Shown here: positions 62,645 through 63,757 of the stretch, piece after piece
Layout: each line of letters starts with the position of its first letter
How positions within the stretch are numbered: position 1 is the stretch's first letter
Sequence record: OP557969.1
DNA length: 64,000 bases
Strand: one strand, 5' to 3'
Origin: Escherichia phage ph0011
Program-made: the position numbers and the translations under genes
The notes under the pieces: generated by a model
Database searches by the model: none
Told to the model about the DNA's origin: nothing
Seen by the model: the letters and a program-made list of their open reading frames with translations, nothing else

Positions 62645-63757
62645 ATGAAAAAGTATTTGGTTGGAGGTTATACGAGAGATCGTTTAATGGGCATCCGTGC
62701 AAAAGACAAAGATTATGTCATTGTTGGTGCAACTGAATCCGATATTAAGTACTTGCAAAGTATTGGTTATAAGCAAGTAGGCAAGGACTTCCCTGTGTAC
62801 TTGAGTCCAGAGGGTAATGAACACGCATTGGCTCGTACCGAGCGTAAGACTGGTACTGGATATGGTGGTTTCGAAGTGAATACAAAAGGTGTGACACTAG
62901 AACAAGATCTATATCGTCGTGATCTCACAATCAATAGTATTGCTTATGATCCAGTACTCCAGATTCACATCGACCCTTATGGTGGGAAAGCTGATATCAA
63001 GAACAAAGTACTTCGTCATGTATCAGAACACTTTAAAGAAGATCCATTGCGTGTTCTACGTTTGGCCCGTTTCGCTACACGTTATTCAGACTTTTCTATC
63101 CATGAAAGTACAGAGGAACTTGCTATTAGTATGGTCAATAGTGGTGAATTAGATCATCTTGTCCCAGACCGTGTTTTTGTTGAATTTGAAAAAGCACTTT
63201 CTGAAGAAAAACCATCTAAATTCCTCAAAACCCTAAGTAAATTTGGTTATTATGAGAAAGTTTTCAAAACATCTCTAACTAAAAAGAATTTAGACATAAT
63301 TGATTATATTTCTGATAACTGCACGGATGTATATAAACCATATTTCTTGTGGGCAGTACTTCTTGAAAATGAAGAAGTAGATAATAATTCTGTTCTAAAT
63401 GGTGCTATTAAAGTACCAGTAAAGTATGTAAAATTTAGTAATTACATCAAACGTTTTTCTGATGATATCAAAACCTTCCGAAAAAAGACCCCAGATGAAA
63501 TGGGTAATATTTTAATGGAAATGAATATCAAAAACAACGGAGGTGAAGGATTCCTTTATAAAGTATTGGAGTATTTCATTTTACGAAAAGAAATCGATTT
63601 AGAACATGAAGACCTGATTGTTAAAGTATATGACAGATATACTGATGTAGTATTACCTGATATTCAGCAACTGGTGAAAGACGGTGAACTTGAAACATCA
63701 GAAATTCGTGATTTTGTTTGTGGGCTACGTTACGAAGCAATTAAACAATTATTCTAA
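62645..63757 (+). CDS. tRNA nucleotidyltransferase (CCA-adding enzyme, class II head/neck; no HD domain)
   Basis: YLVGGYTRD, ALARTERKTGTGYGGF, RRDLTINSIAYD, DPLRVLRLARFATRY collinear with bacterial CCA enzyme. Confidence 0.85.
   Translation: MKKYLVGGYTRDRLMGIRAKDKDYVIVGATESDIKYLQSIGYKQVGKDFPVYLSPEGNEHALARTERKTGTGYGGFEVNTKGVTLEQDLYRRDLTINSIAYDPVLQIHIDPYGGKADIKNKVLRHVSEHFKEDPLRVLRLARFATRYSDFSIHESTEELAISMVNSGELDHLVPDRVFVEFEKALSEEKPSKFLKTLSKFGYYEKVFKTSLTKKNLDIIDYISDNCTDVYKPYFLWAVLLENEEVDNNSVLNGAIKVPVKYVKFSNYIKRFSDDIKTFRKKTPDEMGNILMEMNIKNNGGEGFLYKVLEYFILRKEIDLEHEDLIVKVYDRYTDVVLPDIQQLVKDGELETSEIRDFVCGLRYEAIKQLF

Follow-up and report, generated by a model that had tools for sequence, protein, structure and literature searches.

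In E. coli the CCA is encoded in every tRNA gene, which is why the host Cca enzyme is dispensable there. Phage T4 carries no cca gene of its own and uses the host enzyme, which was reportedly found by Morse and Deutscher in 1976 to be needed for those T4 tRNAs that lack CCA. Breaks in the anticodon loop are repaired in T4 by RNA ligase 1 (Rnl1) together with polynucleotide kinase/phosphatase (Pnkp). The idea that a CCA-adding enzyme may work beside such a kinase and ligase is already known, having been published in 2013 for RaK2 and in 2021 for jumbo phages: the RaK2 paper paired the three activities and proposed a maturation role for gp031 (PMC3622015), and a survey of 224 jumbo phages placed the CCA-adding enzyme second only to RlaP among the end-restoring nucleotidyltransferases of RNA-repair systems (PMC7824862). 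Phages of the Studiervirinae that infect Pectobacterium have a tRNA nucleotidyltransferase but no tRNA genes (PMC7693777), so not every phage can carry such a gene for the sake of maturing its own tRNAs. Our literature searches found no biochemical characterisation of any orthologue of the gene described here or of any phage enzyme of its family. One further paper (PMC13219725) used a CCA-adding enzyme merely as a reagent, and the toxic protein Gp22 of fHe-Kpn01 was rejected as a lead, being only a remote nucleotidyltransferase-like protein (PMC7291057).

The window, by which we mean the whole 64-kb stretch of Escherichia phage DNA that was analysed, contains near its end a cca-like gene whose coordinates and length are exactly those of the original prediction (Table 1). 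The gene sits within a tightly packed array of co-directional genes. A 40-aa ORF immediately upstream has its stop codon at 62641–62643, 1 nt before the cca ATG, so that the two are probably co-transcribed and translationally coupled. Scanning the 4 kb around cca gave 22 promoter-like sites, where 22.6 were expected from shuffled sequence, and 2 terminator-like sites against an expected 1.6, neither of them better than chance. One −10-like site with a TG extension was seen at 63765–63792, between cca and the Nudix gene. The conserved neighbours of cca encode a lysozyme, an HPF/RaiA homologue, a Nudix hydrolase, a glutaredoxin and a macro-domain protein.

Table 1. Positions of the cca-like gene, its domains and the RNA-repair genes in the window, and encoded 3' ends of the tRNA genes in the complete relative ECO103 4-12-1
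Feature	Coordinates	Strand	Evidence or remarks
cca-like gene, class II tRNA nucleotidyltransferase	62645..63757	+	ATG-started ORF, 370 aa + stop; PHROG 2244; PF01743 and PF12627
Ribosome-binding-like run GGGGGA	62634..62639	+	Read from the sequence; 5 nt upstream of the cca ATG
Head (catalytic) domain, residues 4–124	62654..63016	+	Pfam; alignment with E. coli Cca
Neck region, residues 125–208, motifs D and E	63017..63268	+	Pfam PolyA_pol_RNAbd at residues 149–208; alignment
C-terminal all-helical body/tail domain, residues 209–370	63269..63754	+	Model helical, pLDDT >90; superposes on body/tail of solved CCA-adding enzymes
T4-type RNA ligase 1 (Rnl1), 380 aa	7792..8934	+	Pfam RNA_lig_T4_1 2.2e-15, T4_Rnl1_C 4.9e-17; PBECO4 gp129 annotated RNA ligase; 54 kb from cca
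Polynucleotide kinase/3'-phosphatase (Pnkp), 310 aa	10033..10965	+	HAD_PNKP 6.9e-43, AAA_33 4.7e-14; PBECO4 gp125 annotated polynucleotide kinase
RlaP-family (RNA-ligase-associated Pol-beta) nucleotidyltransferase, 410 aa	48290..49522	+	PF10127 2.2e-15, above gathering score
ECO103 4-12-1 tRNA-Thr(tgt)			Discriminator, one C, then A/T-rich trailer; without CCA
ECO103 4-12-1 tRNA-Asn(gtt)			Discriminator, one C, then A/T-rich trailer; without CCA
ECO103 4-12-1 tRNA-Ser(act)			Discriminator, one C, then A/T-rich trailer; without CCA
ECO103 4-12-1 predicted tRNA-Gly(tcc)			Discriminator, one C, then A/T-rich trailer; without CCA
ECO103 4-12-1 tRNA-Arg(tct)			CCA encoded
ECO103 4-12-1 tRNA-Ser(tga)			CCA encoded
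ECO103 4-12-1 long-arm tRNA with CAT anticodon			CCA encoded

The DNA of the cca region is 87–88% identical to that of Asteriusvirus jumbo coliphages such as PBECO4, 121Q, phAPEC6 and Sharanji. A 25-kb stretch compared with Asteriusvirus phages gave 83–92% nucleotide identity over 73–81% of its length, and nothing in the phage collection matched the window above ~92%. By these measures, the window comes from an Asteriusvirus-like jumbo coliphage, related to these phages but distinct from them, with a genome of ~350 kb. Orthologues of the Cca protein, grouped in PHROG 2244, are found in PBECO4 (gp033), 121Q (gene 539), K64-1 (gp036), RaK2 (gp031) and GAP32, with protein identities of 86–92% within Asteriusvirus, 67% to Alcyoneusvirus and 57–59% to GAP32 and Erwinia phages; a 99%-identical protein (P0001) is encoded on a 231-kb metagenomic or assembled contig. 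The Rak2-like orthologues are 367–374 aa long and have the same domain layout and the same neighbours, with lysozyme upstream and Nudix, glutaredoxin and macro-domain genes downstream, so that only sequence divergence separates them from the protein of the window. Even Klebsiella phage K64-1, an Alcyoneusvirus, retains this gene order, which runs lysozyme, small ORFs, cca, Nudix, glutaredoxin, macro domain. In a translated search of 50,697 phage records, 416 had a homologue. In 78 of these it covers at least 80% of the query, and the 78 are mainly Rak2-like jumbo phages that infect Escherichia, Klebsiella, Salmonella, Erwinia and Cronobacter. PBECO4 gp033 is annotated 'tRNA nucleotidyltransferase' in RefSeq, the orthologues in 121Q and K64-1 carry this annotation too, and other records use CCA-adding enzyme or multifunctional CCA protein.

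Profile searches agree with these annotations, with matches far too strong to be accidental. The PolyA_pol head domain (PF01743) matched residues 4–124 with 64.9 bits (1.2e-17; gathering cut-off 23) and the PolyA_pol_RNAbd domain (PF12627) residues 149–208 with 34.6 bits (1.6e-08; cut-off 22), while the PHROG 2244 profile, 'tRNA nucleotidyltransferase', matched over the full length, residues 1–369 aligning with profile positions 3–387 of 392 (381.6 bits, 1.2e-113). The best NCBIfam match was the multifunctional Cca of the E. coli type (NF008137/PRK10885), at 5.6e-81 and 272.4 bits; this match spans positions 1–207 of the 409 in the profile and does not reach its curated cut-off of 451 bits. 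BLASTP against Cca of E. coli K-12 (b3056) gave the same boundary, with 51% identity over residues 1–207 and no similarity beyond 207. Profiles of the poly(A) polymerase PcnB matched weakly (TIGR01942, 87.8 bits with a cut-off of 305.65; PRK11623, 49 bits), and the A-adding equivalog profile of NCBIfam scored 66 bits.

The motifs were examined in an alignment of the phage protein with E. coli Cca and up to 120 homologues from a large protein collection, 122 sequences being scored in all. The head and neck motifs of class II enzymes noted in the original prediction are all present and nearly all invariant. Motif A comprises G7, G8, R11 and D12 together with the catalytic DxD carboxylates, which the alignment was checked for and which are both there: D21 (62705–62707), where 112 sequences have D and 9 have E, and D23 (62711–62713), kept in 121 of the 122. 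Invariant throughout the 122 sequences are R91, R92, D93 and N97 of motif B (RRD, ribose recognition), D110, G114 and D117 of motif C (the D..G..D spring element), E132, D133 and R136 of motif D (EDxxR, 63038–63052) with R139 and R142 following it, and R176 and E180 of motif E. The EDxxR of motif D is the amino-acid template that selects CTP and ATP. Between motifs A and B lies the flexible loop, residues ~59–76 (ALARTERKTGTGYGGF), which is needed for the switch to addition of the final A and is missing from CC-adding enzymes. In the phage protein the loop residues 59–76 (EHALARTERKTGTGYGGF) align with EYALARTERKSGSGYTGF of E. coli Cca, and E59, R64, E66, K68 and G72 are invariant.

The predicted structure has a mean pLDDT of 93.7 and the full architecture of head, neck, body and tail. 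It superposes on the CCA-adding enzymes of Thermotoga maritima and Bacillus stearothermophilus, a tRNA complex included, with TM scores of 0.67–0.72 over ~390–400 columns. The solved class II enzymes compared (T. maritima 3H37 and 5HC9, B. stearothermophilus 1MIV, the A-adding enzyme of A. aeolicus 4WBY and E. coli poly(A) polymerase 3AQL) have sequence identities of 21–27% to the phage protein and share a fold which in itself does not show which nucleotides are added. From the profiles, the conservation of the motifs and the structure model together, the ORF encodes a genuine class II tRNA nucleotidyltransferase, and its head and neck retain every residue needed for binding the 3' end of tRNA and for selecting CTP and then ATP without a nucleic acid template, the two metal carboxylates D21 and D23 among them.

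The C-terminal part of the protein is a different matter. The phage protein and E. coli Cca have motifs A–E and the flexible loop in common, whereas the HD ligands are found only in the E. coli enzyme. The eight ligand positions (H231, H255, D256, H270, H273, H305, H309 and D345 in E. coli) are gaps or E, N, S, K or Y in the phage protein, all eight are deleted or substituted in 80 of 80 phage-family homologues, and the Pfam HD domain finds no match in the phage sequence. The protein is nevertheless not a truncated form of the E. coli type, since at 370 aa it is only 42 residues shorter than the 412 aa of E. coli Cca. Using hhalign, the C-termini of the phage family align with those of HD-containing Cca at a probability of 82% (E 1e-5, 134 columns) and with those of HD-less homologues from large, presumably bacterial contigs at 93% (3.2e-7, 111 columns), and the latter align with HD-containing Cca at 98% (3.9e-13, 140 columns). 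Residues 209–370 are a decayed, remotely homologous version of the HD phosphohydrolase domain found in Cca of the E. coli type, reduced to a purely structural body and tail. The original description of a protein of 370 aa without the HD domain is therefore right as regards function, all of the ligands having been lost, but imprecise as regards anatomy, where a homologous helical domain is kept. As all of the metal ligands are absent, we firmly expect the phage enzyme to have no phosphohydrolase activity, neither as a 2',3'-cyclic phosphodiesterase nor as a phosphatase. With the HD domain decayed, it should be able to extend only 3'-OH ends and could not on its own restore ends that carry a 2',3'-cyclic or 3'-phosphate. 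By analogy with the solved tRNA complexes, the body and tail may serve to anchor the elbow of the tRNA.

Loss of the HD function is not peculiar to phages, since Cca proteins of ~360 aa without an HD domain occur in bacteria, as seen in the NCBIfam families PRK13296 and PRK13297 and in homologues on megabase contigs. These bacterial proteins are of similar size, have the same head and neck and a C-terminus without a Pfam HD match, and their profiles match residues 1–209 of the phage protein at 204–211 bits, below their cut-offs of 469 and 624. The phage family is set apart from them by conserved C-terminal patches of its own (FRKK, NxKNNGGE.FLYK and EDLI.KVYD). We conclude that the phage family descends from a gammaproteobacterial Cca and has lost all of the HD catalytic residues.

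The role of the enzyme depends on the tRNAs available to it. ARAGORN and Rfam found no tRNA or other RNA gene in the 64 kb. In the complete relative ECO103 4-12-1 (352 kb), ARAGORN located seven tRNA genes in one cluster at 31–35 kb, ~165 kb from cca, and their encoded 3' ends fall into two kinds (Table 1). Sharanji has the same encoded 3' ends as ECO103 4-12-1, and Salmonella phage SD-6_S16 has the same for Gly, Asn and Thr. Relatives carry 6–7 tRNA genes; the Asn, Thr and Gly genes are CCA-less in three Asteriusvirus genomes, and the Ser(act) gene is so in two of them. Yersinia phage fHe-Yen9-04 is likewise a Rak2-like jumbo phage but more distant, and in the region examined eight of its ten tRNA genes lack CCA. 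Well-formed genes are found among those without CCA; Rfam confirmed six of the seven tRNAs of Sharanji, and its two best scores, 70 bits for Asn and 67 bits for Thr, belong to genes of this kind, with tRNA-Gly(tcc), likewise CCA-less, falling below the Rfam threshold. We infer from these relatives, at 83–92% nucleotide identity, that the phage of the window also has CCA-less tRNAs. The original prediction had suggested looking for phage tRNA genes that lack an encoded CCA, and the result is positive in the relatives, which favours a more mundane role than the one it proposed, namely maturing the phage's own tRNAs.

Each of the CCA-less tRNA genes examined keeps a single C after the discriminator. 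RNase T is averse to 3' C residues, and for this reason we speculate that the conserved C might mark the point at which exonucleases stop trimming the 3' end.

Since CCA-less tRNAs occur in the relatives, the most economical role for the enzyme is the maturation and upkeep of the 3' ends of phage tRNAs. Our preferred explanation, to which we would give a probability of roughly 0.7, is that the gene is a phage copy of a gammaproteobacterial class II CCA-adding enzyme that, during infection, finishes the 3' CCA of tRNAs and keeps it intact. It would act first on the tRNAs encoded by the phage itself, which in the relatives are clustered far from cca and are in part without CCA. The 3' ends of such CCA-less precursors would be trimmed, and C and A, or the whole of CCA, would then be added by the phage enzyme before charging. 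Any tRNA whose CCA end had been eroded by exonucleases would be restored in the same way, so that the phage would supplement the host enzyme and become independent of the level of a Cca that its host can dispense with. The annotation of the orthologue as a tRNA nucleotidyltransferase in relatives, and the retention of the same neighbours out to Alcyoneusvirus, are in keeping with this role. Against it, three of the seven tRNAs of the relatives encode CCA, and the phage enzyme may be redundant for maturation, since the host supplies Cca and T4 manages with the host enzyme alone.

The original prediction had placed cca in a set of RNA-repair genes directed at host ribonuclease defences. Its identification of RNA ligase 1 and of the polynucleotide kinase/phosphatase was borne out by Pfam matches (Table 1), the latter protein combining a P-loop kinase with a HAD phosphatase, and to these we add the RlaP-family gene, a putative further RNA-repair gene that was absent from the earlier list. 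The genes of a set are therefore indeed present together in the genome, and Rnl1, Pnkp, RlaP and cca are all conserved in PBECO4. What does not hold is their linkage. The distance from cca to Rnl1 and Pnkp is 52–55 kb and that to RlaP 13 kb, with dozens of unrelated genes in between; in neither the window nor PBECO4, where the layout is equally dispersed with ~90 genes between, does cca lie next to the ligase or kinase genes or share an operon with them. The set that includes cca is no more than a co-occurrence within one genome. Compared with the anticodon-loop repair of T4, homologues of both of its enzymes are found in the window and a cca gene is present as well, though unlinked to them; unlike the T4 setting, there is no sign here of an anticodon nuclease or of a defence aimed at CCA.

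A counter-defence function is, in our view, possible but doubtful. Here cca would be one arm of a dispersed tRNA-repair toolkit, rebuilding acceptor ends after infection has triggered host nucleases or toxins that cut or trim them. Equally tentative is the division of labour that goes with it, in which Pnkp would heal 2',3'-cyclic and 3'-phosphate ends and phosphorylate 5' ends, RlaP and Cca would restore nucleotides, and Rnl1 would seal breaks in the anticodon loop. The presence of all four genes in the window and their conservation in PBECO4 speak for it, as does the rank of the CCA-adding enzyme in the jumbo-phage survey (PMC7824862), and the nucleotidyltransferases of tRNA-less phages argue that some such phage enzymes act on host tRNAs. 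Loss of the HD function may also be counted in its favour: without that function the enzyme would rely on another protein for 3'-phosphatase activity, for example on the HAD domain of Pnkp, and this dependence could provide a rationale for the co-occurrence. By the same token, because the HD domain is dead, a counter-defence role would require Pnkp or another phosphatase wherever ends are blocked by phosphate. Set against these points are the dispersal of the genes just described and the unrelated nature of the conserved neighbours of cca. In addition, our literature searches found no host defence that removes CCA ends; among the tRNA-targeting systems that they did find, OLD hits the anticodon arm and Retron-Eco7 degrades tRNA-Tyr. 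Counter-defence and maturation share an identical chemistry and differ in the pool of substrates, a distinction that sequence cannot draw.

An elaborate version of this proposal, which we regard as unlikely, is that the HD function was shed through the division of labour with Pnkp, RlaP and Rnl1, that the acceptor ends being rebuilt are those hit by an unrecognised CCA-directed host defence, and that the 'discriminator-C-A-rich' ends of the CCA-less tRNAs are tuned to the phage enzyme and not to host Cca.

The conserved single C bears also on the specificity of the enzyme. Specificity in class II enzymes depends in part on their C-terminal regions, and the 160 C-terminal residues of the phage protein have no BLASTP similarity to E. 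coli Cca. It might therefore be supposed that the C-terminus restricts the enzyme to phage tRNAs already ending in N-C or N-CC, to which it would add only the terminal A (or CA), as the one C after the discriminator in every CCA-less gene examined could suggest, or that it redirects the enzyme to substrates other than tRNA, for a tailing like that of poly(A) polymerase which marks host RNAs for decay. We think this improbable. Residue by residue, the EDxxR template and the flexible loop agree with those of E. coli Cca, the PcnB profiles at 88 and 49 bits lie far below their own cut-offs and compare with 272 for Cca, and ends of the form N-C need C as well as A, which is an activity of the CCA type. 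That the gene was captured from a host and is now a relic that no longer functions, for which the decayed HD half and a host enzyme that could make it redundant might be cited, is scarcely credible and was rejected, given an intact 370-aa reading frame with a confidently predicted fold, catalytic residues that are invariant across 80 phage-family homologues diverging to ~40% identity, conserved C-terminal patches, and a gene order conserved from Asteriusvirus to Alcyoneusvirus.

Taken for itself the gene is an ordinary one, tRNA nucleotidyltransferases being annotated in hundreds of phage genomes, direct orthologues included. For the family, the decay of the HD domain would mean that phosphate-blocked ends cannot be healed by the phage Cca alone. 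The well-formed, CCA-less tRNA genes of close relatives provide concrete candidates for its substrates.

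The Nudix gene 3′ of cca, the tRNA nucleotidyltransferase gene, is shared between two frames as read from the window sequence. The frame opened by ATG 63834 encodes MRYSCGIIFYRDGQILIGHTTRTESLGFT* and ends at that stop; the Nudix box, GQNHWDLPKGKAEGNETFKEAAVRECYEETGYEI, lies in the following frame, starting at ATG 63868, and the annotation of the close relative PBECO4 uses the start equivalent to this second ATG. The same protein in Klebsiella phage K64-1 is a single unbroken ORF, MLYSCGIIFYQNGQILLGHCTGQKHWDLPKGK... By this comparison, the gene has a 1-nt frame disruption near ACAACACGGACAG that is conserved in the Asteriusvirus lineage. 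Possible readings of the split gene are a Nudix protein truncated at its N-terminus, a pseudogene, or recoding.

Features of the cca neighbourhood, the wider window and the tRNA cluster of relatives (coordinates after a colon count within the DNA retrieved for that relative)
Feature	Position	Strand	Match or counterpart
SIR2-family protein	28077-28829	+	Pfam PF02146, 1.1e-19
RlaP-family (RNA-ligase-associated Pol-beta) nucleotidyltransferase, 410 aa	48290-49522	+	Pfam PF10127, 2.2e-15
DUF5856 protein, 146 aa	53381-53821	+	Pfam DUF5856, 1.2e-26
Lysozyme-domain protein, 319 aa, TTG start	59238-60197	+	Pfam PF00959 phage lysozyme, 3.1e-10
HPF/RaiA homologue (ribosome hibernation / S30AE), 110 aa	60214-60546	+	Pfam PF02482, 2.5e-10
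Two adjoining ORFs directly upstream of cca, ~140 aa each	61687-62100 and 62087-62509	+	
Nudix gene, 3′ of cca	63834-64000, runs beyond window end		PBECO4 L001:9836-10268; K64-1 L017:3659-4093
Two odd tRNAs	L004:32316-32405 and 32413-32504 (ECO103 4-12-1); L012:4098-4286 (Sharanji); L016:7819-7989 (Salmonella SD-6_S16)		

On the other side of cca, the two adjoining ORFs look like paralogues of one another. Towards the C-terminus both contain ...L..Y.FIDDTF..D.., and Pfam gives no match for either. The HPF/RaiA homologue, encoded 2 kb 5′ of cca, is conserved in PBECO4, where it is gp039. The lysozyme-domain protein also gives a weak LysM match, and K64-1 has a lysozyme gene at the equivalent spot upstream of cca.

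Two unusual tRNAs are found in the tRNA cluster of the relatives, one with a CAT anticodon, a long variable arm and a length of 90 nt, the other a tRNA-Ser with anticodon ACT. Both score above the Rfam tRNA threshold, at ~50 bits each; the tRNA-Gly(tcc) of the cluster falls below it. In Salmonella phage SD-6_S16 the version of the CAT tRNA measures 79 nt, and the tRNA-Ser has GCT instead of ACT.

Elsewhere in the window, the RlaP-family protein is a putative additional RNA-repair enzyme missing from the list of the original prediction. The PBECO4 orthologue of the DUF5856 protein is annotated ‘starvation-inducible transcriptional regulator’. The SIR2 orthologue in PBECO4 adjoins a second Nudix hydrolase (gp094/gp095), and the two may form a pair acting in NAD/ADP-ribose metabolism or counter-defence.
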